This document shows, one piece after another, positions 5,613-30,566 of a DNA stretch of 64,000 nt (its first letter is position 1; every line of letters begins with the position of its first letter). Origin of the DNA: Bacteroidaceae bacterium (GTDB lineage Bacteria; Pseudomonadota; Alphaproteobacteria; RF32; CAG-239); the NCBI GenBank assembly GCA_963641885.1, contig CAVIDY010000002.1:18811-82810 (forward strand). Reading direction: 5' to 3'. Position numbers and translations under genes: made by a program. The notes below the pieces were generated by a model. That model saw nothing but the letters and a program-made list of their open reading frames with translations. It had not been told where the DNA came from and did no database searches.

Positions 5613-7259
<1,647 letters not shown>

Positions 7260-8115: not shown

Positions 8116-8340
8116 TAATACTATTTTCTGGCTTAATGCTCATTCGCCAAGAATGACAAGTAATACTATTTTCTGGCTTAATGCTCATTCGCCAAGAATG
8201 ACAAGTAATACTATTTTCTGGCTTAATGCTCATTCGCCAAGAATGACAAGTAATACTATTTTCTGGCTTAATGCTCATTCGCCAAGAATGACAAGTAATA
8301 CTATTTTCTGGCTTAATGCTCATTCGCCAAGAATGACAGT
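8116..8340 (+). repeat. Five perfect tandem copies of a 45-bp unit derived from the palindromic element
   Basis: taatactattttctggcttaatgctcattcgccaagaatgacaag occurs five times. Each unit contains the tcattc-gccaa-gaatga mini-hairpin. The array abuts the stop codon of the 1133-aa gene at 8400-8402. Confidence 0.9.
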
Positions 8341-8399
8341 GTTAGGGACGATGGCTGTCGCTCAAAGCCAAGAATGACAGTGTTAGGAGTTAAAGTTGA

Positions 8400-11300
8400 T
8401 TACCATGCTTCGTTATATTTCAACGTTGGGTCATTCAACCTATTTAAATATTTACCATTAGTCGAATCAACCTTTTCATAATCAATTGCACCTGTCATAT
8501 CCTGCATATATTTATAGCCATCTACAAAGTAATCTTTTTCTGCACTATCTTCATAGCCATGAAATAGGTTTGTTCTATCAAAGTAGCAATATACCGTTGC
8601 ATATCCTTCTATTGATCCTCTCAATACCGGAAATACATTCCAATAGTAACTTTCTATTTTATTGTTACTTGGGGTAGTGCCTATAAATGCATCATACTTA
8701 GATTTAGGATACAAAAATCCAATAATTGCTGACCAACCTTGATAAATACCTTTTTCACTCTTTAATTTAGTCGTCAGAGCTTTTAATCTTGTGCTTTGTT
8801 GGAACATCAACGGCGCAGATGGTTGATAAGAAGCATTAGATTGTAGAACATAAGTACTTGTTTTTACGTTACTGATATCAGCAGTGCCTTTTTCAGCACC
8901 TACAGTTACAGGTATTGTAGTAGCAGTAGTACTATCTTTATCAACCACCATACCGACTTTACTAAATGACGGTCTATCCGCTGGAGTTGCTACTGCAGTT
9001 ACTTGTTCTTTGCTTGGAGTGTCTGGTAATATAAAATATCTATCATATGTTTTGTCACTAGCTTGAGTACCTGCCCCATGTACTGAGCCTGCTTGCGCCA
9101 TTTCCCAGCTTGCCGGAGTCAAGGTTATCACACGACCATATCCAGGAGGACATTGCGGCGCTGGCACAACCCCCATAAACGGCGATGCCCAACTGTCTTC
9201 TTTGCTCATATCCAATGTCTCATCAGGATCTATATCTTGATTCTTTTTTTGGGCTTCTGAATACAACTCATCATCTGCACTAAAATCCCAATTTCCTACT
9301 TTTGTTTCAGAAATGGTATTGTTAACCACGTAAATACCTTTATTGATAAAGTCAGGTAAAATATCACTCAGACGGGCTCCGCCGCGAGTGGTTAATTTGA
9401 TATCGTGCATAACTGAAGTATACGCCGGATTTACCATATAGGTATCATAAGCAACGTCATGGTTAGATCCATTATAATTACTAAAGTCCTTTGTAGCAAG
9501 TATAGGAAATTCAGCGCCGTATGTTTTATTCGTAACAGCATTACCATTGCTACCATAAGCCAAATTGTTTGCGACAAAGCGGGAGGCGGCAACTACACCT
9601 TTACCCTCTAACGCGCCGGTTGTTGTAGCAGGTTTACTATTTTCTCCGCGGACTTCCATATATCCCTTACGGATATATACAGTACCAGGTTCAGTATCAC
9701 TATAATTATTGGTGGTGCTAGTAGCGCCTTGGTCGATATAAACAAGGTTGGAATAATCACCCGCTGTGCTATTCGGCACGATGTTTACACCGGCTCTTAC
9801 ATTATATTGACCGATAGAAACATGATATTTTCCATTCTCTACACTTTCTGTTCCGCGTCCAACTTGACCGGATTTGGAGTCACCAATAAGAACGTTGCCA
9901 TGCATAGCAATATCATACGGCTGCAGATATCCTGCTTGGTTACTGCCTGCAGAGGTGAACATATCTTGAAAAGCATAGGAGTTTGGATTAGAATTTGCGC
10001 GAACACTAAACACATACCGTCTATCGGCAGTTGCATCATGATAATATAATCCGCCTACACCGATATTAAAGTTAGCGTCAGCCAAATCTACCGAACCTTG
10101 ATTAAACAAAGTTCTTGTCTCGTTTTCTGCTCCCTCAATGGTTAATGTTTTATTTTCCATTATAGATCTAATACCGCCACCGTACAGCACCGAAACAGCT
10201 GGTGCGGCAGAATCCGCTGTTTTATTACCGTGAAGCAAAAATAAGCCCGCAGCTTCATCATTTGCATCAGCTCCACCGGTTGCCAACATAATTTGATTCT
10301 CTCGAAATTCAGCTCCAGTTATGTTGTCATCGCCAGTATTTTGAATTGTGACGCCATCTTCATTGGCGGTCAGCCATTTTTCGCTGTCGTCGATATTTTT
10401 TGAGCCAACTGAAAGCGTTGCCGCACGTATTTTTTGCGTATCCAACTGACGAGTTGCCAACAAACCATCTATTTTAGTGTTTGCACCAACTCTAACCTGG
10501 AATAGCGGACTATTGTTATACGTTATTTCATCTAAATTTGCCCCAGGATATGTAGCACTTTTTATTCCATTTTCTAAGATGACAACTCTATCCTTTATGT
10601 TTGCCTCATTATTTTCAAAAGTATAATATGGCTTCAACTGCATAACATTTCCCATAAAATTCATATCTTCTTTTGTTGCTTTTATGGCATAAGTTCCATC
10701 TGCTCGTCCATCAATATACCCGATTTTCACATCATTCCAGACGTCCACATTTGAAGCTAAATTCACATCTCCCAAGTTTGTCAGCGAGCCGTCGGCTGTG
10801 GCGTTGCCGTTGGTGTCAACCTTAAAGTGGAAGTCTTCAGTTGTTGTGTCGCCCTCTGTAATCAGATTACGTCCAAAGCCCAAACGATTTGCATCGGCTT
10901 TAAATTGTTCTCCCGCCGCAATCAAATTGCCTTGAATAAAGGCGTCCGGTTTGCCGAAACCGTCAGCGATATAAAGTCCATAAGTAGAGTTCTCAATATT
11001 GTCGTTCTCTGCACCAACAATCAAGCTTTTAATATTGCGGATACTAAATGTTTTTTGATGATTTTCATTATTATACACATCGTAGGTATTATCAACACCG
11101 CCCATGTATAAATCCGTGCGCATACTGTTTTTCCACAATGTGTTAGGATCGTTACCGGCATCGCGTCCGCGCTGCAGGTATTTATCCATATCAATTTCGT
11201 TGCCAGTCGCGGCACTGATGGTGTCCGCCGACGCCGTCACAATGGAATATTGAGCCGCATCATCTCCATCGGGAAACACTTCGCTATATTCATCGCCTTC

Positions 11301-11801
11301 AAGTTTCCAAATACCGCCGATACCGCGGGCTTTTTTCTCGCCAGTCACATAACCGCCGCTAGAACCAATCAGCGAGGCAATGCGCGAAGTACGCTCTTGT
11401 CCAATATCGGTGTTGGTTTTAAACAGCGCAAACGTGGTCAGGTTATTTCCCTGTTTGGCAATAGCGATTTCAGGCTTGCCGTAATTATACAGCGCCTTGT
11501 CAATTTTAAAGCCATACGGCAGATACGAATCAATTAACGGTAGATCCAATTTACGGATTTTCTGTGTTTCACCCATATCTGCAATAATGGTGGAGTAGTT
11601 TGCGCCCACATAGTCGTTTGCCGCGTTCATAATAGTGCGAATGGTGGACGCAGTGTTGATGTCTTCTACCTCCATGGTTCTTTCCGCCGACTTTTTATAC
11701 ATGGTCGGGGTAACAACGGCGATAAGTCCCAGCATAGCCAGGGCTTCAATCATCAAACCACCCCTCTGCGCTATAGATTTTGAGATATTACGACGTTTCA
11801 T
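8400..11801 (-). CDS. Giant (1133 aa) secreted protein with a type IV prepilin-like (class III) N-terminal signal; candidate pilus-associated adhesin
   Basis: Strong AAGGAG Shine-Dalgarno 8 nt upstream. The N-terminus MKRRNISKSIAQRG|GLMIEALAMLGLIAVV has a basic leader, a G before the cleavage site, Glu at +5 and a 20-aa hydrophobic segment. The remainder is Gly/Asn/Thr/Asp-rich and adhesin-like. Confidence 0.6.
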   Translation of the reverse strand: MKRRNISKSIAQRGGLMIEALAMLGLIAVVTPTMYKKSAERTMEVEDINTASTIRTIMNAANDYVGANYSTIIADMGETQKIRKLDLPLIDSYLPYGFKIDKALYNYGKPEIAIAKQGNNLTTFALFKTNTDIGQERTSRIASLIGSSGGYVTGEKKARGIGGIWKLEGDEYSEVFPDGDDAAQYSIVTASADTISAATGNEIDMDKYLQRGRDAGNDPNTLWKNSMRTDLYMGGVDNTYDVYNNENHQKTFSIRNIKSLIVGAENDNIENSTYGLYIADGFGKPDAFIQGNLIAAGEQFKADANRLGFGRNLITEGDTTTEDFHFKVDTNGNATADGSLTNLGDVNLASNVDVWNDVKIGYIDGRADGTYAIKATKEDMNFMGNVMQLKPYYTFENNEANIKDRVVILENGIKSATYPGANLDEITYNNSPLFQVRVGANTKIDGLLATRQLDTQKIRAATLSVGSKNIDDSEKWLTANEDGVTIQNTGDDNITGAEFRENQIMLATGGADANDEAAGLFLLHGNKTADSAAPAVSVLYGGGIRSIMENKTLTIEGAENETRTLFNQGSVDLADANFNIGVGGLYYHDATADRRYVFSVRANSNPNSYAFQDMFTSAGSNQAGYLQPYDIAMHGNVLIGDSKSGQVGRGTESVENGKYHVSIGQYNVRAGVNIVPNSTAGDYSNLVYIDQGATSTTNNYSDTEPGTVYIRKGYMEVRGENSKPATTTGALEGKGVVAASRFVANNLAYGSNGNAVTNKTYGAEFPILATKDFSNYNGSNHDVAYDTYMVNPAYTSVMHDIKLTTRGGARLSDILPDFINKGIYVVNNTISETKVGNWDFSADDELYSEAQKKNQDIDPDETLDMSKEDSWASPFMGVVPAPQCPPGYGRVITLTPASWEMAQAGSVHGAGTQASDKTYDRYFILPDTPSKEQVTAVATPADRPSFSKVGMVVDKDSTTATTIPVTVGAEKGTADISNVKTSTYVLQSNASYQPSAPLMFQQSTRLKALTTKLKSEKGIYQGWSAIIGFLYPKSKYDAFIGTTPSNNKIESYYWNVFPVLRGSIEGYATVYCYFDRTNLFHGYEDSAEKDYFVDGYKYMQDMTGAIDYEKVDSTNGKYLNRLNDPTLKYNEAW

Positions 11802-11830
11802 CTTCGTTCTCCTTATTCTCCACTATTATC

Positions 11831-12646
11831 CTACTGCTGAACATGGCAGTGTCCGCCGCTATCGGCGTTTCGGTATTTGTCAAATGCAAACAAGCAAGGC
11901 TTGCCCTGCATACACTTTTCTTGAAATGCTTTAGAGGCGTCATCTGATCCAATATAAAAAACCTTCGGAAACACAAAGTTTATATACTTAGCAATTGAAC
12001 CTTTCGCATTTTGCGAATTCTTTTCATACATAATTTGAATTGCCGTACGCCCCACCAAATGGCATTTAGCGGTTGAGCCGGTGCCTTCGCACCACGTCCA
12101 GCCCATATTTTTAACTCCGGAAAGCTCTTTTGCCAAATAGTTGGTAAAATTCGGGGTCGGCGCAACCATTTTTACTTTGCGTGAAGATTCGCCTTCGGTG
12201 ATAGTAACTTCGGTCTCGGTTTTGGAATACCAGCGTTCCGGTATTTTGGCAAAAGAAATGGCATATTTGTTTTTGCTGCCTTCATCGCTGCTGCAACGCT
12301 TTACGTTTGCTCCGTTTTGTATGTTGTCGTCAAAGCAATAAATGGCGTGCGTGGATTCCGTAACGATGTTGTTCATATCATAACCCAAAGGCAGGTTGTC
12401 TTCCATTTTGCTCAGGCAGTTATTTTCTTCTGTGCATTTAAACGGAATGTCATAATTTCCACTTTGCCCGTTATAAATCATTTCGCACTCGGTGCCGCGA
12501 TAAAACGCAAGGTGTTCCGCCCGAAAACGGTTTACTACCGTGGCGGCTTTTATCTCAGTGAATACGCCGGCTTTGTCCTCGCGCGGAGAGGTGTTGAGAA
12601 AACTCAGCGCCACCATTATCGTTGCAAGTAAAATCCAAATATACAT
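11831..12646 (-). CDS. Hypothetical secreted or membrane-anchored Cys-containing protein (271 aa), first gene of the operon with the giant pilin-like protein
   Basis: N-terminal hydrophobic signal MYIWILLATIMVALSFL and AGG Shine-Dalgarno. There is a 30-bp gap to the downstream gene. A promoter-like TTGTGA...TATAAC lies upstream. Confidence 0.55.
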   Translation of the reverse strand: MYIWILLATIMVALSFLNTSPREDKAGVFTEIKAATVVNRFRAEHLAFYRGTECEMIYNGQSGNYDIPFKCTEENNCLSKMEDNLPLGYDMNNIVTESTHAIYCFDDNIQNGANVKRCSSDEGSKNKYAISFAKIPERWYSKTETEVTITEGESSRKVKMVAPTPNFTNYLAKELSGVKNMGWTWCEGTGSTAKCHLVGRTAIQIMYEKNSQNAKGSIAKYINFVFPKVFYIGSDDASKAFQEKCMQGKPCLFAFDKYRNADSGGHCHVQQ

Positions 12647-13777: not shown

Positions 13778-14596
13778 TTATTCTGCACTTTCATGCATCG
13801 GTACATCTGGAGTTTCCACTTCGGCAGATGTTTCTGGCTGAGCTACTGCTTCAGATTTTACCGGCTTTTGAGTTTCAATATCAGCATTAGAATCTGCATC
13901 TGCTGTAACATCAGATGTTTTGTTAGAAATAGTATTCGCTGCACTTGTATTCTGAACAGTAGCATCTTGCTGATCGCTATCTTTATCCAACGCAACAGAA
14001 ATAGCACTAAGCACAATGCTTATGATAAAATATAAAATAATATAAATATTGGCCTGTTTATTATATTTTGGACTTTCTTCAACCGGTTTTCCATATCTGT
14101 TTTCTTCCGCTTGGCCTTTACGCAAATATAAAATTAACAGCCATATCATAACACCAAAAACCACAACACCGGAAGCCCCCATCAAGCCAATACCGATATA
14201 TTTCATATGCGGTGTCAGCATAGTTCCAAATATTATACCTACTCCAAATATTAAAGGCAGCCATAAAAGCTGACCGCTATGGTTTGTATCATGCAATCGG
14301 CGTACGGACAAAGCCAATACAGCAATGGTTTCAAGCAGTGAATACACATAGTATAAAACCGTACCGACAATCATCATTGTTTTTATAGGAAGTAACAGTG
14401 ACATAGCTAATAGCGATATAACCATTCCCCAACCAAATATAACAAGGCTAAATAGAAAATTGGCAAAAACAAATCCCCAATAATCATATTTGCTGGCGCG
14501 GGTTTTGAAGTTAAACATATTTTTGAAACCTGCCACAAATGCGGTCAGCAGATTTTTTTCATTTTCAGTTTTTTCAACTGTTTCTGTCATTGTCAT
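13778..14596 (-). CDS. DUF805-family inner-membrane protein (YhaH-like) with an acidic Ser/Thr/Asp-rich C-terminal tail
   Basis: FKTRASKYDYWGF and VRRLHDTNHSG motifs. Start is taken at MTMTETVEK, which has an AGGAA Shine-Dalgarno and overlaps the comEC 3' end by 23 nt. Confidence 0.7.
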   Translation of the reverse strand: MTMTETVEKTENEKNLLTAFVAGFKNMFNFKTRASKYDYWGFVFANFLFSLVIFGWGMVISLLAMSLLLPIKTMMIVGTVLYYVYSLLETIAVLALSVRRLHDTNHSGQLLWLPLIFGVGIIFGTMLTPHMKYIGIGLMGASGVVVFGVMIWLLILYLRKGQAEENRYGKPVEESPKYNKQANIYIILYFIISIVLSAISVALDKDSDQQDATVQNTSAANTISNKTSDVTADADSNADIETQKPVKSEAVAQPETSAEVETPDVPMHESAE

Positions 14597-16625
14597 TCCT
14601 TTCTTGTTTAATGCAACTGCGCCATGGCCGGCAAACGCCCTGCGGCTGCAGCGGCACAACTTTTGTTTTATTTTGCTTAAAGATATACCCTCCGGCGCTA
14701 TTGTCAATATTTTTTCCATTTATTTTGATATCGCCTTGCTTAGAAAATTCAATCGAATCCAGATAAGCGCATTTTTCCGCACTGCATTTTAATTCAATAT
14801 TTTCCAAGTTTGTTTTGCTGCCGGCAAAAATTTCTTTCAACTCCTCTTTTTGCTCTTTATTCAAATCTTTCAGACGCAGATTTTCACGCCAAACCGAAAC
14901 TGTCCAGCTATCTGTTTTCATTGGCAGAAGCAGCATTTCCCCTGCCTTATCGCGCAAAGCTATCCCCTCGCCTTTGGGAGCAAAAACCATATCCGGCTGC
15001 GCACCGAAAAACATTGAGCTTACACCAATCAAAACCGGCAGCACGCCCCATAAACGCCATTTTCTTTGCCATACGCACAGCCACCAGCCGCCGCAGACAA
15101 TAAGTGCGAATCCCCCAAACGGCAGCGAATCCACATACGCCACACTATGCGGCAAACTTGAGACAAACTCCGTTATTTGGTTGAGCCAACTCACACCATA
15201 GCCCAGAGCTTTTAGCGGATACAGAGCCAATCCCAACGGCAGAGCGACTAAACAAAGCAAAATCAGAGGCATCAAAACCAAACCTATTAACGGACCGGCA
15301 AGCAGGTTAGCCAGGCTTGTATAAACCGAAATCCTGTGGAAATGATAAATTGCAAACGGCATTGTCGCCAGACTCGCTACAAAATCGCAAATCACAATTC
15401 CCGCTAAATAGAAAAAAATCTTGCTGAAAATCCCCCGATTTACTGACCATAAAGCAATCTTTTGCGCATATCTTTCATAAAAAGCGATTAAGGCAACCAC
15501 CGCCGCAAACGACATCTGAAAGCTGATAGATATCAAAGCCTGCGGTGAAATTATCAGCAAAATTAAACCCGCAAAACAAACCATTCGCATAGAAATCGCC
15601 TGCCGATTAAAAATAACCCCGAGCAACACCACGGCGGTCATGATAAACGCACGTTCCGCAGGCACCGCCATTCCCGAAACCGACAAATAGAGCGCGCTGA
15701 AAAGAATTGCTCCGAGCGCGGCAAGTTTTTTGACATCATAGCGCAAAGCTACAGCTGGAAACAGCGCCAGCAAAAAACGCAGCACAAAAAACATCAAGCC
15801 GGCAATCGCGCCCATGTGCAAACCGGAAACCGACAGAAAATGCGCCAATCCCGAATCGCGGTAATTATTAACGATTTGCTTCGGAGTGCGGCTCTGCTCG
15901 CCAATCAGCACCGCGTCAACAATTCCGGCCTCGTTCGGCGGCAGAATCGCTGCCACATCATTAGTAATCCGCTGACGGATTTTGTTAAGGCGAATCCGAA
16001 AAAACGAGGTTTGTTTCTGCTCACAATCAATCACAAATATTGAACTATTTGCATAACCGATACCGCTGATTTCCTCGTAAAAATATTTTCTATCCAGCTG
16101 AAAGCCATTCAGTACCGGCACTGGCGACGGCGGAAAAAATGTACCTACCAACTCCACACACTGCCCGACTTCCAGTTCAGTATTTCCGCTGTTCATCATG
16201 GTGACGCGGTATTTACCTTTAAGCGGTTCGTCAAAATTTTCAACATTCTGCAAAAGCAGCCGCTTGCGTCCTTTTTCATTATATGAAACCGCGCTGATTT
16301 GCCCTTTAATATAATCTGTAATTTCCGGCGTAAACATAACTTTGCGGCTTTTTAATAGAGTTTGCAGCTGGATATCCATAAAACCGAATTCGCATATAAG
16401 AATCGCCGTAAAAAGCAGATGCAGCCCCTTATTACGCAATAAATAAAACAACAGCAAAGTCGCTTCAAAAACGCCCAGACTATACCAATAATTCGGCTCA
16501 AACGGCAAAGCAAAGTATACGGCTATTCCCAAACCAAATAAAAACGGCACCCAAGCCAGCCACCTGCTCTGTTCAGCAAAAAAATTTTCGGAGACATAAG
16601 CTCTTATCTTGCGGAAAATTCTCAT
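14574..16625 (-). CDS. comEC: DNA internalisation/competence protein ComEC/Rec2
   Basis: A 683-aa polytopic protein with the ComEC competence domain (DSGLAHFLSVSGLHMG...). Its start overlaps the lpxB stop by ATGA. Confidence 0.85.
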   Translation of the reverse strand: MRIFRKIRAYVSENFFAEQSRWLAWVPFLFGLGIAVYFALPFEPNYWYSLGVFEATLLLFYLLRNKGLHLLFTAILICEFGFMDIQLQTLLKSRKVMFTPEITDYIKGQISAVSYNEKGRKRLLLQNVENFDEPLKGKYRVTMMNSGNTELEVGQCVELVGTFFPPSPVPVLNGFQLDRKYFYEEISGIGYANSSIFVIDCEQKQTSFFRIRLNKIRQRITNDVAAILPPNEAGIVDAVLIGEQSRTPKQIVNNYRDSGLAHFLSVSGLHMGAIAGLMFFVLRFLLALFPAVALRYDVKKLAALGAILFSALYLSVSGMAVPAERAFIMTAVVLLGVIFNRQAISMRMVCFAGLILLIISPQALISISFQMSFAAVVALIAFYERYAQKIALWSVNRGIFSKIFFYLAGIVICDFVASLATMPFAIYHFHRISVYTSLANLLAGPLIGLVLMPLILLCLVALPLGLALYPLKALGYGVSWLNQITEFVSSLPHSVAYVDSLPFGGFALIVCGGWWLCVWQRKWRLWGVLPVLIGVSSMFFGAQPDMVFAPKGEGIALRDKAGEMLLLPMKTDSWTVSVWRENLRLKDLNKEQKEELKEIFAGSKTNLENIELKCSAEKCAYLDSIEFSKQGDIKINGKNIDNSAGGYIFKQNKTKVVPLQPQGVCRPWRSCIKQERNDNDRNS

Positions 16626-22663: not shown

Positions 22664-23482
22664 TTAACGCAGATATTGATGATTTTGCAAGAAATCAGCG
22701 AATCGGCTTAGAAACTGCGTTTTAAACTGTTCATCAACACACAGCCACTTAAACAAATCCAGCAGACGCGGTGTAACATTCAATTTTGCACAAAAATCAA
22801 TAGCATATTGATAGTTTATATCATAATACCATGTCAGATAGCCGACAATTCGGTCGGCGACAGTTTCTTCAACTCCGCGCGGCAAAGTAGCATATTGGTC
22901 AATCAAATTCCAAACAGACTTAGAAATATGCCCGTCAATTTCCGGTTCTACATCTTTTTTGCCATAAAACAAATAGCGCATCTGCGGCTCAAAAGCAAAC
23001 ATACGCAAATTAGCGATTTTATCAGCGTCGCGGATAATAAAGCAAATGCGTGCAACTTCTTGTTTAAGCTCTGCAGCGGCAATATTTTTATATTCGTCGT
23101 CAGCATACAAAGCTTCTATCAAATGCCCGTGATGTTTTATCGGCAGCCAAATACGAATATCCGAAAACTCCGGCACAGTGCGCAAAAATTCACCGCCAGC
23201 GATTCCGTGATCTATCTGTCGATTATGCAGACATCTTTCCTCTATCTCGGCGAATCGGCAAATATCATGCAAAAGCACTGCAGATTTTACCATATCCACA
23301 TAGGCAGAATCTTTGCTTTTCAGCCATTCCACGCGCGGAACAATGTAGTTGCCCGCCCCCATAACCTGATAGGAATGACGGATTTTTTCTTTGGTATAGC
23401 CCACAAAAAATTCGTCGTGAGCCACTTTTTGCAAACATTCTTCCGATTTTTCTTTCAGCAGCTGATAAGCATCTTCCAACAT
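22664..23482 (-). CDS. HD-domain phosphohydrolase-family protein
   Basis: H...LLHDICR motif. The start is moved to MLEDAYQ (GGAGA Shine-Dalgarno). The ORF-track N-terminal extension would run across the recA promoter. Confidence 0.65.
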   Translation of the reverse strand: MLEDAYQLLKEKSEECLQKVAHDEFFVGYTKEKIRHSYQVMGAGNYIVPRVEWLKSKDSAYVDMVKSAVLLHDICRFAEIEERCLHNRQIDHGIAGGEFLRTVPEFSDIRIWLPIKHHGHLIEALYADDEYKNIAAAELKQEVARICFIIRDADKIANLRMFAFEPQMRYLFYGKKDVEPEIDGHISKSVWNLIDQYATLPRGVEETVADRIVGYLTWYYDINYQYAIDFCAKLNVTPRLLDLFKWLCVDEQFKTQFLSRFADFLQNHQYLR

Positions 23483-23578
23483 GGTATTTCTCCTTTGCTT
23501 TTTACTTAGCACTTTTTTCCGGTGCAGTATAATTTTTAAATAATTATTCACAAATTTATAATAAAGTGCTTGCCATAA

Positions 23579-23593
23579 GAACAAAATTAGAAC
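23579..23593. promoter_or_regulatory. Candidate alphaproteobacterial-type LexA (SOS) box GAAC-N7-GAAC upstream of recA
   Basis: gaacaaaattagaac lies 95 bp upstream of the recA ATG and ahead of a TTGAGT-17-GATAAA promoter. It matches the GTTC-N7-GTTC direct-repeat SOS box of Alphaproteobacteria. Confidence 0.5.
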
Positions 23594-23688
23594 AATATAC
23601 ATTTCAGCGGATAAATTCAGACTCGTGTTGAGTTTTTGCTGAAAATGCGGGATAAAGAATTTAGGATAATTTTTTAAGGATAACAAAC

Positions 23689-24714
23689 ATGGAAAAAGAT
23701 AAAGCGTTAGACGCCGCCCTAAGCCAAATTGAACGCGCGTTCGGCAAAGGTTCTATTATGCGCCTCGGGCAGAATACCAACATTGATATCGAGGCGATTC
23801 CTACCGGTTCGTTGGGCATTGATATTGCTTTGGGAATCGGTGGTTTGCCAAAGGGTCGTATTATTGAAATATATGGTCCGGAGAGCTCCGGTAAAACCAC
23901 ATTGGCTTTAAGCGTAATCGCCCAAGCGCAAAAACGCAACGGCACTTGCGCTTTTATCGATGCAGAGCACGCTCTTGACCCGTCATATGCTAAAAAAATC
24001 GGCGTGGATATTGAGAACTTGCTGGTTTCACAGCCGGATTCCGGCGAACAGGCTTTGGAAATCGCCGACACTTTGGTGCGTTCCGGCGCAATTGATGTGA
24101 TGGTTGTCGACTCGGTTGCCGCTTTGGTACCAAAGGCAGAATTGGAAGGCGAAATGGGCGATGCGCACATGGGCTTGCAGGCTCGCTTGATGAGTCAGGC
24201 TTTGCGTAAACTGACCGCCACGGTTGCCCGCTCCAACACTTTGATTATCTTCATTAACCAAATTCGTATGAAACTGGGCGTTATGTTCGGCAATCCGGAA
24301 ACCACAACTGGCGGTAACGCCTTAAAATTCTACGCTTCTGTGCGTATGGACATTCGCCGCGTGGGCGCAATTAAAGATAAAGATGAAGTTATCGGTTCGC
24401 AAACCCGCGTGAAGATTGTGAAAAACAAAGTCGCTCCTCCGTTTAAGACTGTGGACTTTGACATTATGTACGGCGAAGGAATTTCCAAAACCGGCGAACT
24501 AATTGATTTGGGTGTAAAATCCGGAATTATTGAAAAAGCCGGCGCGTGGTTCTCGTATAACGGCGACAAAATCGGTCAAGGACGTGAAAACGCCAAAAGA
24601 TATTTAATGGAGAATCCAGCTATTGCCGAAGAAATCGAAAACAAAATCCGTGCTGATGCCGGTCACCTGACAACAGAAATGATTGGCGAAGACGAGCCGG
24701 AAACCGAAGACTGA
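23689..24714 (+). CDS. recA: Recombinase RecA
   Basis: GPESSGKTT Walker A and full-length canonical RecA. Confidence 0.98.
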
Positions 24715-24743
24715 TTTTGTTTTATAACTATCTCCAATGTTTT

Positions 24744-24772
24744 AAGCCCTGCTTTTCAGCAGGGCTTTTTTA
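24744..24772 (+). terminator. Terminator after recA
   Basis: aagccctgcttttcagcagggctt followed by T6. Confidence 0.7.
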
Positions 24773-24787
24773 TTGCTTACTTCATTG

Positions 24788-24811
24788 CGAATCGGAGATG
24801 CGGAAATCTAA
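24788..24811 (+). repeat. Copy 1 of an approximately 23-bp direct repeat, CGAATCGGAGATGCGGAAATCTA
   Basis: Related copies lie at 26127-26150 (cgaatcaggaatgcggaaattta) and 26610-26626 (cgaatcggaga-aattca, with a 6-bp deletion). Confidence 0.7.
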
Positions 24812-25095
24812 CTAAAAAACAGGCCTTTTCCCTCAGGTCTGCAAACAGCCTTCTCACAGACTCAAAATCCAGGCAGTTTACACACAGCTATCCTTGCGCT
24901 ACTTGTAATTCTTTGAATGTAGTGATAACATTATAAAAAAATTTAGTAAATTGAAATCTGACGAAGTATTGCAATGACATTTCAAGACTTATTCAACAAA
25001 TTCTTCTCAAAGGGCAAGCCCTATTGATATTTCTTTCATAATCCAAAAATCAATCACTAAATGAATAACTAAAATGGACGAAAGGAATAACTAAA

Positions 25096-25950
25096 ATGAA
25101 ATATGTGACCCTTAATAACGGTATCCAGATGCCGATGGTAGGCTACGGAGTCTTTGAAATCCCTGCGGAGCAGACCGCAGGATGTGTGTTTGATGCGCTG
25201 GAAACTGGCTATCGCCTGATTGACACCGCACAGGCATACTACAACGAAAAAGAAGTTGGTGACGGTATCCAGCGCGCCATAAAGGAACATGGTATTTGCC
25301 GGGAAGATATTTTCCTTACCACCAAAGTCTGGGTGACGGAGTTCGGCTATGAAAAGGCTAAGACTTCTGTTGAAAAATCCCTCCGAAAGCTCCAGACTGA
25401 TTATCTCGACCTTGTGCTGATTCATCAATGCTTGTCTGACTATTATGGCGCTTACCGAGCACTGGAGGACTTATATGATGAAGGCAAGATCAGAGCCATC
25501 GGTATCTCTAATTTCAGCGCAGAGCGCATGGCAGATATTGCAACCTTTAACCGTGTTGTCCCGGCAGTCAATCAGGTAGAAACACACCTATTCTGGCAGC
25601 AATATGATCTGCATGAGTGGATGGTAAAGTACAATATTCAGCATGAGGCGTGGGGGCCTCTTGCTCAGCATAGACTGAAAGAAATTCTCGAAAGCCCCAT
25701 TGTAAAGCAAATTGCAGATACCCACGGAAAAACGTCTGCACAGGTCGCTCTCCGGCAGCACATTCAGCGTGGCATTGTCGTAATCCCCAAGAGCGTGCAT
25801 AAGGAGCGCATGAAACAGAATCTGGATATTTTTGATTTTGAACTGACTACCGATGAAATGGAACAGCTAAAAGCGCTGGATGAAAACAAATCCATGTGGG
25901 CCGAATATGATGATCCAATGATCGTCCAGTTCGCAATGATGGATGAATAA
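25096..25950 (+). CDS. Aldo/keto reductase (2,5-diketo-D-gluconate reductase-like, AKR superfamily)
   Basis: GYGVFEIP...LIDTAQAYYNEKEVG...IGISNF are AKR catalytic-tetrad motifs. AAGGA Shine-Dalgarno. Confidence 0.85.
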   Translation: MKYVTLNNGIQMPMVGYGVFEIPAEQTAGCVFDALETGYRLIDTAQAYYNEKEVGDGIQRAIKEHGICREDIFLTTKVWVTEFGYEKAKTSVEKSLRKLQTDYLDLVLIHQCLSDYYGAYRALEDLYDEGKIRAIGISNFSAERMADIATFNRVVPAVNQVETHLFWQQYDLHEWMVKYNIQHEAWGPLAQHRLKEILESPIVKQIADTHGKTSAQVALRQHIQRGIVVIPKSVHKERMKQNLDIFDFELTTDEMEQLKALDENKSMWAEYDDPMIVQFAMMDE

Positions 25951-26146
25951 ATTCCGATTTATCTAATAGTTTGCAAAAGCCAAAAGCAGGAGTACAGCCA
26001 ACCGGACAAACTGAAAAACTGTGCTCCCGTTTTGCATATTCATGAGCTTTTTCCAGCTCTTCACCGTGTCTGCCAATAATGTCTGATTTTAAATTAAAAA
26101 CGACCACTAAAAGTCAAGTCTAAAAACGAATCAGGAATGCGGAAAT

Positions 26147-26536
26147 TTATGACTGTTTCTTAAAATTTTTATAAATCGCATAAACTAAAGAAATGATTAG
26201 CAAGATACTTGTGCCATAATCAAAAATTGAAAGTACTTTCTCTATGGCCTCATCTTGATAATCAATAAAATAACCTGAAGCGATAAAACCGGCTGTAAAA
26301 ATTATAAAAATGTAGGGATACCAGCCAATAGAACTTAAACAACTTGAGATTTTAGGATAACCGGCAATAATACGTTCTAGAAATCTAAGTTTTTTCTTAA
26401 AGCACAGCATTATTGCTAAGCCTATAAACAGCAACAGCAAAATTCCGCTGATTGTTTCATTTAAATAAGTGAAAGGAATAGCTAAAACAGTATATAATCC
26501 GCCTAAAAGCATAGCTTCTTTAGAATACAATTTCAT
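26147..26536 (-). CDS. Hypothetical small membrane protein (129 aa, 4 TM)
   Basis: AAGGAG Shine-Dalgarno before MKLYSKEAML. Its 3' end abuts direct-repeat copy 2. Confidence 0.5.
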   Translation of the reverse strand: MKLYSKEAMLLGGLYTVLAIPFTYLNETISGILLLLFIGLAIMLCFKKKLRFLERIIAGYPKISSCLSSIGWYPYIFIIFTAGFIASGYFIDYQDEAIEKVLSIFDYGTSILLIISLVYAIYKNFKKQS

Positions 26537-26737
26537 TTTTACTCCTTTCACTTTTTAGTTATATTATTACAAAAACATCACATTATGCAATTATTTTATT
26601 AGCACAAAACGAATCGGAGAAATTCAATAAAACTTTAAGCCAACATTGCAAGTTGCTTCATTGCCGCAATCGCACCACTCTACTGCGGTTGTTTTTGATA
26701 AAAGAAAAAGCCTTGGCTAAAACCAAGGCTTTTGAAG

Positions 26738-26813
26738 TGGTGGTCGGGGACGGTTTCGAACCGCCGACACAAGGATTTTCAGTCCTTTGCTCTACCAGCT
26801 GAGCTACCCGACC
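26738..26813 (-). tRNA. tRNA-Phe (anticodon GAA)
   Basis: The reverse complement GGTCGGG-TA-GCTC-AGCTGGTA-GAGC-A-AAGGA-CTGAAAA-TCCTT-GTGTC-GGCGG-TTCGAAA-CCGTC-CCCGACC-A-CCA folds as a cloverleaf. A terminator hairpin lies at 26708-26735. Confidence 0.85.
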
Positions 26814-26918
26814 ATCGTTTACGAGACACTTTATAAAATAGTTTTTTCCAAAAGTCTACATATTTTTTTATAAATGTGCATTTTTTTTATATCTTTAGGT
26901 CGGAAGCGCCATTTTTTT

Positions 26919-27107
26919 CTAGTTCAACACTCGTTTTTCCAGCGCGTCTACTCTTGCTGCAATACCACCGCGGAACACTGTCTGAATTTCTGTAGCCATT
27001 TTATATTCATTAAAATAACCATGACTGCGGAAATAGTTTTTCACTTCTTCAAGATTATCTTCTATGTCATAAATTGCATTGATGTAAGCAAATTGTTTTT
27101 GATTCAT
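26919..27107 (-). CDS. Hypothetical small protein (62 aa)
   Basis: AGGAG Shine-Dalgarno 8 nt upstream. Co-oriented with the next small gene and divergent from the LysR gene. Confidence 0.5.
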   Translation of the reverse strand: MNQKQFAYINAIYDIEDNLEEVKNYFRSHGYFNEYKMATEIQTVFRGGIAARVDALEKRVLN

Positions 27108-27127
27108 TTTTCGGTTCTCCTAAAAAA

Positions 27128-27289
27128 TCAGCGACAGCTATTACGGCAAACATCAAATTCGCAATTCAAAATGCGCAGTTTGTTAAGTTCGTTTTCGTGA
27201 TTAAATTTCAAAAAGCTGGCTTCCAGCATTTGCAATGATTGATAAATGCGGTTAGGCATTATAGCTGTTCGGTTCTTTTCTAAATTCAT
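27128..27289 (-). CDS. Hypothetical small protein (53 aa)
   Basis: GGAGG Shine-Dalgarno immediately upstream of MNLEKN. The ORF-track N-terminal extension lacks a Shine-Dalgarno. Confidence 0.4.
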   Translation of the reverse strand: MNLEKNRTAIMPNRIYQSLQMLEASFLKFNHENELNKLRILNCEFDVCRNSCR

Positions 27290-27467
27290 AATATCCTCCT
27301 TCATTTTTCTGTGGATAAAATAAGAATAATAAATTTTCCACAAAACAGAAGACCAAAAAAATATATGTCTGAATTATAAAAAGGGGCTATTGACTCTGTT
27401 TATAAGAGTAATTATTATATAAGTATAGAGTTTAATTCTAGGAATAATTGTGAGCGAGGATAACTAA

Positions 27468-28430
27468 GTGTCTGTTAGAAGCGACATTTTATTATTTAAG
27501 CTGTTATCTCATTATGAACTGGTAGTTGAACACGGTCAGCTTAAAAGCGCCGCTGAAGAATTAGGTTTGAAACAATCTAATCTATCAAAAGAAATGAAGC
27601 TACTGGAAGAGATGTTGGGAACCGAGCTTTTAGTGCGCACCAGTCATGGTGTGCGTTTAACGCTGACCGGAGAACAAGTATTTACCCTTGCTAAAGATTG
27701 CACCAGCCGTGTGGCAGAATTAGCCAACCGTTTCCACGGCGAAATTCAAAACGCCTGCATCACCCTGCAAGCCACATCGGCAACCATGGTGTCTTTTCAT
27801 AAATATCTTGATTTGTTTAAACAAATTTACCCTTCCGTCACCTGTAATTTTTATGACGGAGTTATATCTATTCCCAGCATGCTGAAAAGCGTGGACGTCT
27901 GCGCTACCTATTTGCAAAACAAATGGCAGAATGTTGATGTTATATGCGAAGGCAAAATAGTTTTCTCGCTTATCACCACGCAAAAATATTTGGACATATA
28001 TGGTTATCCCCGTGACTTAGACGACTTACGGCAAAACCACCATCTTTGCCTGTGTGAAGAATATTCGCGCTATAATCCGCAATATGACGACCTAATGGCA
28101 AACTGCCGACACTTGGATTTTCAGGTTTCAAACTTTGACATGATGCTTTCAATGATACGGCGCAAATGTCTGATTGGCGAAATGCCGGCGTATATGACCC
28201 GCGTTTTTCCAGAGCTTATAAAAATAGACGTACCGGGGTGGCAACTGAAAATGCCTATACAAATTATTACCGCCAGCGGCAGAAGCAAAATACCTTATGT
28301 CCACACTATGTGCAGCTTTATGATTGAATTATACCGTGAAGTGGTACGCGCCGGCGGTATTGAAGATTTGGTCATTTATCCGTCATATACCAAGAATAAA
28401 AATTTAATTCCGTTAAAACTTGAAAAATAG
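27468..28430 (+). CDS. LysR-family transcriptional regulator
   Basis: N-terminal HTH (YELVVEHGQLKSAAEELGLKQSNLSKEMKLLEEMLGTELLVR) and a LysR substrate-binding-length C-terminus. GTG start. Confidence 0.8.
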   Translation: MSVRSDILLFKLLSHYELVVEHGQLKSAAEELGLKQSNLSKEMKLLEEMLGTELLVRTSHGVRLTLTGEQVFTLAKDCTSRVAELANRFHGEIQNACITLQATSATMVSFHKYLDLFKQIYPSVTCNFYDGVISIPSMLKSVDVCATYLQNKWQNVDVICEGKIVFSLITTQKYLDIYGYPRDLDDLRQNHHLCLCEEYSRYNPQYDDLMANCRHLDFQVSNFDMMLSMIRRKCLIGEMPAYMTRVFPELIKIDVPGWQLKMPIQIITASGRSKIPYVHTMCSFMIELYREVVRAGGIEDLVIYPSYTKNKNLIPLKLEK

Positions 28431-28553
28431 CAATTTTTGCCTGTTTTTACACAATTTTTGTATAAAAATGAGCGAAAATTGCATATTTTTGTTGTTTTTT
28501 ATGCAAAATCAGAATATAGGAATAGCAGGTTAATTTTTAGAAAAGGAATAAAT

Positions 28554-29021
28554 ATGTCAAATCCTATTGATACCAAAGTTATTAGCAAATTGGCTGAAAT
28601 TTTGGATAAAAATCAATTAACTACCTTAAATTACGAAGATGAAAGCTGCAAAATTTCTTTGGTTAGAGAAGTAAGCGGCGGTGTTGTTCCAACATACGTT
28701 CCTGCTCCTCAACCTGTTACCACTCCGGTTGCGGCTGCTCCGGCAGAAGAAGAAACGAAAGAAACTGTTGTAGATTATAGCAATAATCCAAACGCTATTA
28801 AATCTCCGATGGTCGGCGTGGTATATCTTTCCAGCAATCCAAACTCTCCGAACTATGTTAAAGTCGGCGATTCGGTTAATGAAGGCGACACCTTATGCCT
28901 GATTGAAGCTATGAAGACATTTAATCCGGTAAAAGCTCCGCGCGCAGGCAAAGTTGCTAAAATTTTGGTAGAAACTGGCGACCCGATTGAATACGGTGAA
29001 CCATTGATTGTGATTGAATAA
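28554..29021 (+). CDS. accB: Biotin carboxyl carrier protein of acetyl-CoA carboxylase
   Basis: EAMKTFNPVKAP biotinyl-Lys motif and a Pro/Ala linker. Start at MSNPID. Confidence 0.9.
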   Translation: MSNPIDTKVISKLAEILDKNQLTTLNYEDESCKISLVREVSGGVVPTYVPAPQPVTTPVAAAPAEEETKETVVDYSNNPNAIKSPMVGVVYLSSNPNSPNYVKVGDSVNEGDTLCLIEAMKTFNPVKAPRAGKVAKILVETGDPIEYGEPLIVIE

Positions 29022-29035
29022 AACAAAGGATTGCT

Positions 29036-30382
29036 ATGTTTGAAAAAGTTTTGATAGCCAACCGCGGTGAAATTGCCTTGAGAATACATCGGGCGTGCCG
29101 AGAAATGGGAATCCGCACTGTGGCTGTACACTCAGAGGCTGACGCCAACGCCATGCACGTGCGTTTAGCCGATGAAGCTGTGTGTATCGGTCCGGCGCGT
29201 TCTGTTGATTCATATTTGAATAAACCGGCAATTATTTCTGCCGCCATTATTACCGGTGCTGACGCAATTCACCCAGGGTATGGTTTTCTTTCGGAAAACG
29301 CAGATTTTGCCGAAATGGTGGAAAAGCACGGGATTACTTTTATTGGTCCAACCGTGGCGCAAATGCGTTTGATGGGAGATAAAATTACCGCCCGTAAAGC
29401 TGCAAAAGAGGCTGGATTACCGATTACCGAAGGTTCCCCTGCTTTGGAATCTATTGAAGATGCCAAGCATTGGGCTAATGAAATCGGTTATCCGGTAATC
29501 ATTAAAGCCAAAGACGGCGGCGGTGGTAAAGGTATGAAAATTGCTTTTAACGATGAGGAAATCGGTGAAGCGTTTACAATGGCAAAAGCCGAAGCTAAAG
29601 CCGCGTTTCCAAGTGATGTTGTTTATATGGAAAAATATTTGCAGCATCCGCGCCATATAGAAATGCAGATTTTAGCTGATAAATACGGCAATGTTGTGCA
29701 TTTGGGCGAACGCGACTGCTCTATTCAGCGCAACAATCAAAAAGTGATTGAGGAATGCCCGTCTCCTGCTCTGAATCAAGAACAACGCAAAGAAATCGGC
29801 GATATTGTTCGCAATGCCATTGCAAAAATCGGCTACTGCAACGCCGGAACATTGGAATTTTTGTATGAGAACGGCAAGTTCTACTTTATGGAAATGAACA
29901 CCCGTCTGCAAGTGGAACACCCGATTACCGAAGCCGTTACCGGTATTGATATTGTTAAAGAGCAAATCCGCATTGCGGCAGGCGCTCAGCTGGGCTATAC
30001 GCAAGATGATATCAAATTCAACGGTCACGCCATTGAATGCCGCATTAACGCAGAAGATCCGGAAACTTTTGTTCCTTGCGCCGGTAAAATTGAAGAATGG
30101 CATGCTCCAGGGGGCTTGGGAGTACGCGTGGACTCGGAAATTTATTCCGGCTACACAATTCCACCGTATTATGACAGTATGATTGCCAAACTGATTGTGC
30201 ATGCAGGCACCCGCAACGCCGCTTTAATGCGTTTGCGCCGCGCCTTGGAAGAATTTGTGATTATGGGTGTGAAAACCACCATTCCGCTGCATCAAGAAAT
30301 TATTTCGCAGCCGGAGTATTTGGATGCTCAATACGACATTCACTGGTTGGAACATTTTATGAAGAATCGCAAAAAACAATAA
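29036..30382 (+). CDS. accC: Biotin carboxylase subunit of acetyl-CoA carboxylase
   Basis: Full-length ATP-grasp biotin carboxylase (MFEKVLIANRGEIALRIHRAC...). Confidence 0.96.
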   Translation: MFEKVLIANRGEIALRIHRACREMGIRTVAVHSEADANAMHVRLADEAVCIGPARSVDSYLNKPAIISAAIITGADAIHPGYGFLSENADFAEMVEKHGITFIGPTVAQMRLMGDKITARKAAKEAGLPITEGSPALESIEDAKHWANEIGYPVIIKAKDGGGGKGMKIAFNDEEIGEAFTMAKAEAKAAFPSDVVYMEKYLQHPRHIEMQILADKYGNVVHLGERDCSIQRNNQKVIEECPSPALNQEQRKEIGDIVRNAIAKIGYCNAGTLEFLYENGKFYFMEMNTRLQVEHPITEAVTGIDIVKEQIRIAAGAQLGYTQDDIKFNGHAIECRINAEDPETFVPCAGKIEEWHAPGGLGVRVDSEIYSGYTIPPYYDSMIAKLIVHAGTRNAALMRLRRALEEFVIMGVKTTIPLHQEIISQPEYLDAQYDIHWLEHFMKNRKKQ

Positions 30383-30566
30383 GCGCTTATTTATATAGAA
30401 AATCCTAAACATTGGTTTAGGATTTTTTTATGCGACCTATTAAAATGATTTGCCGATTTTATTGGCAGAGTAGCCAACGACATACAAAAACGAAATATCA
30501 TTTTTAGCCAAATCTTAACATCTGTTTTTTATGCTAAAGAAAAATGAAAATTAAAGGAGAAAAAAT

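Follow-up and report, generated by a model that had tools for sequence, protein, structure and literature searches.

In the 64 kb stretch of DNA analysed here (the window), the interval between recA and tRNA-Phe holds an aldo/keto reductase (AKR) gene in a segment bordered by direct repeats. The best reading, to which we assign a probability of roughly 60%, is that a fragment carrying the AKR gene was captured by illegitimate recombination, and that short-homology and homologous recombination among co-occurring lineages then reshaped the locus. The interval is probably an accessory slot of a human-gut alphaproteobacterial lineage, remodelled by ordinary recombination. As for the 23-bp repeat, the first-pass annotation had suggested an att-like or cassette site. 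Comparison of alleles instead identifies it as the native, drifting and non-conserved 3' flank of a neighbouring 129-aa gene, stop codon included. It drifts freely, and the hallmarks of integrons and transposons are missing.

Read this way, the locus would be a natural example of cross-phylum gene capture, in which a reductase module that travels on mobile elements of other gut bacteria has settled among core genes of an uncultured gut alphaproteobacterium, apparently with no mobile-element machinery involved. The population alleles are consistent with modules gained, decaying, deleted and re-imported at short repeats. Where direct repeats surround accessory genes, they can mimic att or cassette sites even when they are native spacer, a caution for automated island and cassette callers. 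No new mechanism is called for unless the borders are true cassette sites.

The slot between recA and tRNA-Phe

The neighbours in the window are core genes (recA, HD, BrkB and FabI; LysR and AccB/C). The left border of the slot is the intrinsic terminator hairpin of recA (24744-24767, plus strand), a 10-pair stem plus a T-run, which is kept in relatives that lack the AKR. The right border is formed by tRNA-Phe (26738-26813) and its terminator (26706-26733), both on the minus strand (26706-26813 together). The AKR reading frame, the 129-aa reading frame on the opposite strand with its stop inside repeat copy 2, the recA terminator and tRNA-Phe were all confirmed.

A gene for a predicted membrane protein of 129 aa (26147-26536, minus strand) separates the AKR segment from the tRNA. 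No family was found for its product in Pfam or NCBIfam. It is intact in the window, a pseudogene in L116-type strains (broken by nonsense and frameshift in L116, L119 and L122) and absent in L118. Two loci with distant homologues of the protein (L114 and L115) were considered as related sites and set aside, their contexts being unrelated and the repeat missing.

Next to the tRNA is the 3' remnant of a bundlin-like type IVb pilin gene (26624-26698, minus strand; PF05307, 5e-7), made of the last 25 codons including the stop and reading ...EWCDCGNEATCNVGLKFY*. The gene is intact in L002-L004, and the remnant corresponds to the C-terminus of the L002 protein, with the breakpoint after ...GGTTGTTTTTG. 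The tRNA-Phe gene is next door because the pilin gene was deleted down to these last 25 codons.

The idea of a tRNA-proximal hotspot holds in one respect. The locus is a hotspot of structural variation, with at least five arrangements among close relatives, but the hallmarks of a tRNA island are missing and the tRNA adjacency comes from the pilin deletion. The slot does resemble tRNA-linked islands and integrase-less cis-mobilisable elements in its acquired DNA, its direct repeats and the tRNA gene nearby. It differs from such islands in that the repeats do not derive from the 3' end of tRNA-Phe, the window holds no integrase and the unit measures only 1.3 kb. The 3' 25-mer of tRNA-Phe occurs once only in the window at up to 3 mismatches, which gives no tRNA-derived repeat, and the AKR insertion is separated from the tRNA by about 600 bp or more, with another gene in between. 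Among the window ORFs of at least 110 aa, several of which have no Pfam match at all, none matched a Pfam integrase, transposase or recombinase family; the reported lack of an integrase in the window is thus borne out at this level.

A foreign reductase module with orphan flanks

The AKR gene (25096-25950, plus strand) encodes a DkgA/YvgN-like protein of 284 aa that falls full-length in the AKR (beta/alpha)8 family (PF00248; PDB 1vp5 at 1e-95, residues 3-279). Its score of 239 bits against the DkgA model of NCBIfam is below the equivalog cut-off of 425, and equivalog status was dropped for that reason. Located by reading the translation, D43, Y48, K77 and H110 sit in the motifs LIDTAQAY, LTTKVW and LIHQ, with a spacing that we take to be that of the AKR catalytic tetrad Asp-Tyr-Lys-His.

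Codon usage, a comparison already suggested for this gene, places the AKR second of 51 ORFs in deviation, with a GC3 of 0.51 against a median of 0.42. Homologues with 85-95% amino acid identity adjoin MerR/Fe-ADH, Tn916-type Int/Xis, relaxase, serine-recombinase/prophage or dockerin genes. Nucleotide homology to these foreign-context loci is confined to 24934-25951, where leader and coding sequence are 83-87% identical. It begins at 24934-24955, the same boundary being seen in many contexts, and for all other AKR loci it ends at the AKR stop codon. Close AKR relatives elsewhere carry neither these flanks nor the repeats. In a tblastn search against plasmids the AKR reached at most 52% identity, too little to name the carriers of the close homologues; judging from the neighbouring gene families only, they may be Firmicutes.

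None of the deeper lineages L002, L112 and L113 has the AKR; their neighbouring BrkB and HD genes show 78-82% identity to those of the window. The nearest species representatives, L026 and L027 (RecA 89-90%), have unrelated DNA after recA and no AKR there, so these two do not polarise the event. Given the absence from deeper lineages, the deviant codon usage and the closest relatives in integrase-, relaxase- and prophage-type contexts, the AKR is, on sequence grounds, a foreign gene horizontally acquired from unrelated bacteria. The same module is cargo of integrase-, relaxase- and prophage-type elements elsewhere.

The part upstream of the gene that is common to AKR homologues in unrelated contexts comprises the promoter and 5' leader (24934-25095, plus strand). 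An anti-SD/SD hairpin is present in the leader, with no covariation. The duplicated aataactaaaatg segment and the mini-ORF ATG AAT AAC TAA (25062-25073) that had been described before the AKR start are both there, and the 13-bp duplication belongs to a larger imperfect tandem duplication of 22 bp (25056-25077 and 25078-25099, 19/22 identical). This larger duplication is missing from every AKR homologue outside the recA-linked insert.

The long non-coding flanks of the AKR gene, also noted earlier, measure 381 bp and 196 bp in the window. An Rfam search of 23400-27600 at E up to 1 returned tRNA-Phe only, with no riboswitch or sRNA to account for them. The acquired fragment, about 1.3 kb, is made of the AKR promoter, leader and coding sequence together with orphan flanks of 123 bp and 175 bp. 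The left orphan flank (24811-24933) is non-coding, with a GC of 0.41 and no match found; the right one (25951-26126) ends in ...AAGTCTAAAAA and has no match elsewhere.

No donor of the orphan flanks was found by blastn against up to 125 fetched loci, plasmids and phages, and a second copy of the insert flanks was seen neither in the window nor in up to 125 other loci. The AKR protein and two exact 25-28-mers searched against viral contigs gave no flank donor, and concatenated six-frame flank peptides had no homologue among 5.8 billion proteins. Folding of the right orphan flank gave no structure (z = -0.04). A minus-strand ORF (25847-26107) and the open flank frames were considered as genes and treated as non-coding, having no Pfam family and no homologue. 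Overall, a piece of DNA about 1.3 kb long, of unrelated origin, has become fixed in the spacer downstream of recA.

The repeats and the alleles of relatives

Copy 1 (CGAATCGGAGATGCGGAAATCTA, 24788-24810) and copy 2 (CGAATCAGGAATGCGGAAATTTA, 26127-26149) are 23-mers on the same strand (plus), identical at 19/23 positions, and can be aligned with 4 mismatches or with two 1-nt indels. With up to 3 mismatches allowed, the 64 kb window has no match besides these two, against an expectation of 0.14, and their longest common exact stretch is 10 nt. The consensus as first typed, of 24 letters, has no match even at 3 mismatches, and the repeat was re-derived in a 23-nt register.

Of the three copies first described, copies 1 and 2 are real. 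'Copy 3' (AAAACGAATCGGAGAAATTCA, 26606-26626, plus strand) is made of the 3' flank of the pilin remnant and its stop (TCA, i.e. TGA, at 26624-26626). Its repeat-like part (26610-26626) amounts only to CGAATCGGAG, a 6-nt gap and AAAT, and it has only about 10-14 nt in common with copies 1 and 2. Alone this is at chance level, an 11-mer match having a BLAST E of about 2 in the window, and other strains read CGAATCGGATAAACATCA or CGAATCGTGTAAAACATCA there. Copies 2 and 3 both contain the 10-nt direct repeat AAAACGAATC.

Copy 2 ends with the stop codon of the 129-aa gene as its final 3 nt (TTA, i.e. TAA on the minus strand). Copy 1 has the same composition, the native 3' flank and a displaced stop (CTA, i.e. 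TAG on the minus strand), and is now parted from the gene by the AKR segment. Contigs with an identical RecA protein, and related ones, run from the recA terminator through one 23-mer into the 129-aa gene without an AKR, the single 23-mer lying at the place of copy 1 and directly adjoining the gene. Across alleles the 23-mer occurs in eight versions, each with the gene's stop codon at its end, and in L113 it reads CGAATAGAAAATAAAACTTA, unrecognisable as a repeat. Copy 1 is identical in all AKR-bearing alleles that cover the position. The alleles thus identify what was called a 23-bp repeat as the non-conserved 3' flank and stop of the 129-aa gene, as read from its drift between strains.

In terms of gene content, relatives differ downstream of recA, a comparison that the first-pass annotation had put forward: AKR presence varies and the arrangements are not identical. 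The 129-aa gene only is found in L002-L006, L110, L112, L113 and L116-L122 (L118 apart), both genes in the window, L001 and L107, and the AKR only in L118. The last lacks 483 bp, exactly from copy 2 to copy 3, so that its AKR lies between copy 1 and copy 3, and its deletion or replacement joint falls exactly in AAAACGAATC. The claim of an acquired, gene-sized AKR module bounded by the repeat agrees with the single repeat copy of AKR-less relatives, and L118 likewise makes the 129-aa gene behave as a presence/absence module. A look-up by the HD-domain protein for a near-isogenic strain without the AKR returned none, only one short contig from the same sample as L107.

An assembly artefact, with a foreign AKR contig chimerically joined through a common k-mer, is almost certainly not the explanation. 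The assemblies of the window and its relatives do come from metagenomes, and repeats flank the insert. The exact stretch of 10 nt shared by the copies is, however, below assembler k-mers, and the AKR structure recurs with differences in independent assemblies and samples, namely L001 (about 98-99% identical) and L118 (97.6% over the insert), and in L107 (identical over its 973 bp).

The AKR insert of the window is 97.6% identical to that of L118, whereas recA of the same pair is 93.2% identical. That the insert is closer between strains than recA points to its spread by recombination. The recA of L118 is nearer to those of AKR-less L116, L003 and L110 (95-96%) than to that of the window, and AKR-bearing strains are not monophyletic for recA. 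This last pattern would also follow if the AKR were ancestral at the locus, inherited vertically and repeatedly lost by deletion between the 23-bp repeats, which is mechanistically easy. We consider such a history very improbable. The AKR is missing from all deeper lineages sampled (L002, L112 and L113) and from L026 and L027, it has atypical codon usage, at the nucleotide level its leader and coding sequence come close to mobile-element genes of unrelated bacteria, and the insert is more similar between strains than recA. Vertical descent also leaves the origin of the repeat without account.

A different mosaic is seen to the right of the AKR. The 129-aa segment of the window is 98.7% identical to the L002 type, while the identity between window and L002 is about 80% for the BrkB and HD genes on the left side and 93% for recA. 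SNPs of the L002 type extend from copy 2 (at the shared CGAATC(G)G) to about 26680, which is about 50-70 nt beyond copy 3 and inside the pilin remnant, with recipient and donor alleles being inferred ones. L001 has the same 129-aa patch with a different copy-3 allele. We infer that the 129-aa segment of the window is a recent import from a distant lineage, with its left end at copy 2.

Other strains break elsewhere. L110 breaks directly after CGAATC, and in L111-L113 the break comes about 10 nt ahead of copy 3, at other sequence. Comparison of the right-hand DNA of L110 with the AKR flanks gave nothing beyond a 12-mer. A MITE in that DNA was considered and is unsupported, the DNA not being repeated among the fetched loci.

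Proposed capture and import, and the alternatives

In the preferred reading, illegitimate recombination at microhomology would have brought in the AKR fragment, the L118 state being either the primary product or a later derivative. Then, as the mosaic SNP patterns suggest, a patch of about 550 bp would have come into the window lineage from a distant L002-like lineage, spanning the 23-mer, the intact 129-aa gene, copy 3 and the first part of the pilin remnant. On the right, the crossover would be homologous, in the pilin remnant, and the left joint would have formed through CGAATC(G)G, which the incoming 23-mer has in common with the resident copy 3. Two alleles of one native spacer would so end up in tandem around the AKR.

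Such a re-import accounts for the differences between copies 1 and 2 at 4/23 positions, for the AAAAC that precedes copy 2 as it precedes copy 3, and for all three gene combinations. The serial insertion of the 129-aa gene proposed at first fits less well than its re-import by homologous recombination, as the L002-like tract passes copy 3. Counting against the import, its anchor (copy 3 plus the pilin remnant) is short, about 90 bp at 85-90% identity, and the copy-3 allele of L001 needs one further recombination event.

Homology-facilitated or double illegitimate recombination is described (PMC3240628) for Acinetobacter baylyi, Streptococcus pneumoniae, Pseudomonas stutzeri and E. coli conjugation. 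The locus would resemble it in having one joint at a homologous anchor and the other at a microhomology of a few bases, with no need for an element enzyme, and in products with short duplications or deletions of recipient sequence. Unlike the experimental cases, the one proposed here draws on natural alleles only, and its anchor of about 90 bp is diverged. The anchors known from experiments are longer than that. Uptake by natural transformation is plausible, given the genes for ComEC, DprA and RecA in the window and the presence of a prepilin peptidase and a pilin locus.

The 23-bp duplication could have arisen at the insertion or by later import. The former is the basis of a possible but rather unlikely alternative, a single insertion with a 23-bp target-site duplication in which the window-type allele came first. 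A foreign fragment would have been ligated at a staggered break past the stop codon of the 129-aa gene, with fill-in duplicating 23 nt; a slipped or illegitimate deletion joining the AAAACGAATC repeats of copies 2 and 3 would later have removed the 129-aa gene from L118; and the 4/23 differences and the L002-like patch would reflect later allelic conversion, with tracts ending at the insert border. This agrees with empty sites having exactly one copy and filled sites two in direct orientation, with an L118 joint in a 10-nt direct repeat at 483 bp spacing, typical of repeat-mediated deletion, and with flanks that are demonstrably mosaic. Yet it takes one event more than the favoured model, leaves the AAAAC before copy 2 to chance and has the conversion tract stop exactly at the insert border. 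The copies also differ by 17%, against 0.2-2.4% between the AKR inserts of different strains.

As in a transposon, IS or MITE insertion, a direct duplication flanks the insert and is single in empty sites. Known bacterial transposases leave target duplications of 2-14 bp. The duplication here, in contrast, is 23 bp with copies only 83% identical, no enzyme is evident (no transposase was found), terminal inverted repeats are absent from 24780-26160, and the ends form no stable structures.

A true site-specific cassette or att system, with a recombinase encoded elsewhere acting on CGAATC(R)G...-type sites, is improbable. Single-gene circles would be inserted and excised, the AKR unit having 1339 bp and the 129-aa unit 483 bp. 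All three module combinations do exist with joints at repeats, the L110 break comes right after CGAATC, CTAAAAA(A)C stands at both ends of the AKR segment, and one 12-mer is common to two independent joints. The site nevertheless drifts like neutral spacer and has no further occurrence in the 64 kb window, attC-like folding and inverted repeats are absent and the window yielded no integrase or transposase family. The imported 129-aa tract goes on for about 50-70 nt past copy 3, beyond the reach of a cassette circle, the breaks of L111-L113 lie about 10 nt before copy 3 at different sequence, and close AKR relatives elsewhere have neither flanks nor repeats.

The likeness to integron gene cassettes is in the row of gene-sized modules, their strain-variable presence and the repeated sequence at their borders. 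The AKR segment differs in lacking an attC-like imperfect hairpin (25951-26150, z = -0.04; 24780-24940, z = +0.17 against shuffles) and any IntI or tyrosine recombinase in the window. Integron cassettes are mostly promoterless with minimal non-coding sequence, while the AKR unit has about 160 bp of its own conserved leader plus long flanks, and its border repeat is unconserved native spacer. Att-flanked elements differ as well, the 23-mer varying at many positions between strains with no conserved att core.

Quite improbable, too, is that the CGAATC(R)G... sites, possibly with a CTAAAAA(A)C / TAACTAAAA motif that recurs at several joints, are targets of a putative trans-acting recombinase that shuffles promoter-bearing single-gene units. 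The units would be the AKR (1.3 kb), the 129-aa gene (0.5 kb) and the L110 DNA. If true, gut Alphaproteobacteria would have a cassette system of a non-integron kind.

Two coincidences lie outside the model of capture and import: the CTAAAAA(A)C at both ends of the AKR segment, and the 12-mer ATCTAACTAAAA, which spans both the joint of copy 1 with the AKR segment and the unrelated L110 joint after CGAATC.

Finally, L118 resembles a deletion mediated by short direct repeats (RecA-independent, by slipped misalignment), as it is without exactly the 483 bp between the AAAACGAATC repeats and sister strains have a decaying native 129-aa gene. Unlike a clear case of deletion, L118 may instead be the state before a later insertion.

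Repeats around the AKR insert

The slot between recA and tRNA-Phe is a recombination hotspot that holds an HGT islet, a new example of a known phenomenon, and its neighbours are core genes. From recA (23689-24714, plus strand), a strong terminator (24744-24767) is followed by a first 23-mer (copy 1, 24788-24810), 285 bp lacking any credible ORF, the aldo/keto reductase (AKR) gene (25096-25950), 176 bp of non-coding DNA and a second 23-mer (copy 2, 26127-26149). The final three bases of copy 2 are the stop codon of a 129-aa gene on the minus strand (26147-26536). From a short partial repeat (copy 3, 26606-26626), about 75 bp further lead to the terminator of tRNA-Phe (gene and terminator at 26706-26813, minus strand).

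The first-pass annotation described a three-copy repeat and read it as a series of cassette or att-like insertions. Copies 1 and 2 are real repeats, identical at 19 of 23 positions; with up to three mismatches allowed, no other site in the 64 kb matches (0.14 expected). Copy 3 has only CGAATCGGAG in common with copy 1 and only AAAACGAATC with copy 2, and by itself is a chance-level match (BLAST E ~2). The consensus typed for the repeats has no match in the window, because the copies align only with four mismatches or two 1-nt indels.

In alleles without the AKR gene, the 23-mer is the sequence directly 3' of the 129-aa gene, ending every time in its stop codon. It varies across strains (CGAATCGGGAATGCGGAAATTTA, CGAATCAGGAATGCGGAAATCTA, CGAATCGGGAATATGGAAATCTA and TGAATCGGAGATATGGAAATCTA, with further variants CGAATCGGAAAGGCGAAAATTTA, CGAATCGGGATATGGAAAACTA and CGAATAGAAAATAAAACTTA). 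The hallmarks of a mobile element are absent from the locus. The borders lack attC-like folding (z = -0.04 and +0.17), the AKR segment has no terminal inverted repeats, and the window ORFs of 110 aa or longer show no match to any integrase, transposase or recombinase family, as the earlier remark on a missing integrase had it. The observation was largely correct, but the cassette or att interpretation is not supported: the repeat is a native, freely varying spacer without recombinase or att/attC features, not a recombination site. This well-resolved natural case warns against taking flanking repeats for att sites.

As for the joints, CTAAAAA(A)C is present at each end of the AKR segment, and the 12-mer ATCTAACTAAAA (24806-24817), which spans the joint of copy 1 and the AKR segment, is identical across an independent joint in contig L110. 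There, to the right of the 129-aa gene (L110 1-135, reverse strand), the sequence breaks directly after AAAACGAATC into unrelated DNA starting TAACTAAAAC. Beyond the 12-mer this DNA has no similarity to the window joint, and no other copies of the right-hand DNA of L110 were found. We consider an unrecognised site-specific system very improbable here.

Presence and absence of the two modules

The AKR segment is a true presence/absence polymorphism. In L002-L006, loci whose RecA protein is identical to that of the window, the recA terminator leads to a single 23-mer and the 129-aa gene, with no AKR gene. The same order is seen in the more distant L110, L112 and L113 (found via the 129-aa protein) and in L116, L117 and L119-L122 (found via a 62-aa ORF beyond tRNA-Phe). 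An assembly artefact was ruled out because other, independently assembled contigs have the same AKR-bearing structure, namely L001 (~98-99% identity), L107 (no difference over 973 bp) and L118 (GCA_963617265.1).

In L118, recA, copy 1 and the AKR insert are followed by AAGTCTAAAAA joined directly to CGAATCGGAAAAACATCA, which corresponds to copy 3. The 483 bp spanning copy 2 to copy 3 are missing, and with them the 129-aa gene. The two modules thus occur naturally in all three combinations (AKR only, 129-aa gene only, and both), bearing out the earlier description of two separate gene-sized units.

Both dispensable and in decay, the 129-aa gene is a pseudogene in L116/L119/L122, the sister lineage that lacks the AKR gene, where the native copy has a nonsense codon at position 99 and, in L116 (9560-9975), a frameshift as well. 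In L111, the gene (279-665), the 23-mer and a 22 bp spacer lie downstream of the terminator of a pyruvate:ferredoxin oxidoreductase (845-4393, 1182 aa) and not of recA, so the 129-aa block sits in more than one context. The DNA to the right of the gene differs again in L110, L111 and L112/L113, and the locus is a hotspot of structural variation in general. The terminal bases of the metagenome contig L113 (1-45) are not genomic, since they are Illumina adapter sequence (AGATCGGAAGAGCGTCGTGTAGGGAAAGAGTGTAGATCT).

Foreign origin of the AKR module

The AKR module is foreign in origin, and its two joints have a single origin. Similarity to foreign AKR loci (83-87% at the nucleotide level) is limited to 24934-25951, a stretch that takes in ~160 bp of leader and the coding sequence as far as the stop codon. 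Such sharp borders, from about -130 relative to the ATG to just beyond the stop codon, recur between foreign loci. The L009 and L010 modules share 98.9% identity across 1012 bp, and their surroundings are unrelated, one prophage/serine-recombinase and the other chromosomal dockerin/ROK. Hundreds of homologues exist at 85-95% protein identity; those located adjoin MerR/Fe-ADH, a Tn916-type integrase with Xis, relaxases, a serine-recombinase/prophage region, or dockerin proteins, and these neighbouring gene families suggest that the carriers are Firmicutes.

Furthermore, AKR codon usage is the second most deviant among 51 window ORFs, with a GC3 of 0.51 against a median of 0.42. The gene is missing in the L002, L112 and L113 lineages, where the BrkB/HD neighbours are just 78-82% identical to the window, and the nearest species representatives (89-90% RecA identity) have unrelated DNA beyond recA. 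For the two flanks within the insert (123 bp and 175 bp), DNA and peptide searches gave no match.

A leader of ~125 nt is conserved wherever the gene occurs (window 24934-25095; upstream of AKR in L008-L025, L108 and L109). In its hairpin, UUCCUUUCG pairs with the Shine-Dalgarno region CGAAAGGAA, which would appear to be sequestered; no covariation in the hairpin and no Rfam match were found. The duplication of aataactaaaatg reported ahead of the AKR start is present and belongs to a 22-bp tandem duplication (25056-25077 and 25078-25099). The 22-bp duplication is absent in every AKR homologue outside the recA-linked insert, where it lies between the two hairpin halves and gives two mini-ORFs.

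Mosaic flanks and the tRNA-Phe side

Sequence identities show that the flanks of the AKR insert are mosaic. Window and L118 are 93.2% identical in recA and 97.6% in the AKR insert, and the closest relatives of the L118 recA are the AKR-less L116, L003 and L110. Since the inserts are more alike than recA, the AKR allele has moved between lineages via recombination in the flanks. In the 129-aa segment, window and L002 type share 98.7% identity; L002 differs from the window in its recA-side spacer and is only 80% identical to it in the BrkB/HD region. L002-like SNPs run from copy 2 through copy 3 to ~26680, within a pilin remnant; a recombination tract can carry this stretch beyond copy 3, whereas a repeat-bounded cassette circle cannot.

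We infer that the AKR fragment was captured by illegitimate recombination and the 129-aa patch re-imported by homologous and short-homology recombination. The right end of the imported tract would be homologous and the left end would use the short homology CGAATC(G)G, common to the incoming 23-mer and the resident copy 3. Such a combination of joints has been described as homology-facilitated illegitimate recombination (PMC3240628). Re-import would explain why 4 of 23 positions differ between copies 1 and 2, as alleles from different lineages, and, with the left joint at copy 3, why AAAAC precedes copy 2 exactly as it does copy 3, and neither copy 1 nor any empty site. In the main rival, insertion duplicated a 23-bp target, and the deletion in L118 and an allelic conversion ending exactly at the insert border came later; this takes one more event and one more coincidence than re-import. 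The DNA may have been taken up by transformation: ComEC (14574-16625), DprA (40477-41598), RecA, a prepilin peptidase (Peptidase_A24, 4504-5217) and a pilin locus are present, so that this uncultured gut alphaproteobacterium has part of the gene set for natural transformation.

The tRNA-Phe gene is a bystander. Next after the 129-aa gene, L002-L004 carry a gene of >192 aa that matches bundlin, a type IVb pilin (intact at L002 5532-6110 and L003 2055-2423). The window, L001, L116 and L118 keep only its last 25 codons (window 26624-26698, minus strand), fused to the tRNA-Phe terminator, and copy 3 overlaps the stop codon of this remnant. The pilin C-terminal region and its 3' flank are highly variable between strains. 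The idea of tRNA-proximal insertion was not borne out, as the adjacency comes from the truncated pilin and no second copy of the tRNA-Phe 3' end was found in the window. In L112, the tRNA-Phe side of the 129-aa gene holds the LysR/AccB/AccC block (13-2457), inverted relative to window 27982-30428; no tRNA-Phe was found on this 7.5-kb contig.

Elsewhere in the window, ORFs of 379, 458, 1133, 271, 257 and 238 aa (329-2811, 8400-12646, 52516-53289, 63165-63881) had no Pfam family, the first four at E <=0.001 and the 257-aa ORF at E <=1e-8 only. In the gap between a chaperonin gene (5619-7259) and the 1133-aa ORF (8400-11801, minus strand) lies a perfect tandem array (8101-8338) of 5.3 copies of a 45-bp unit, with 100% matches and no indels. 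The unit equals 15 codons, and an ORF (8036-8377) passes through the array.
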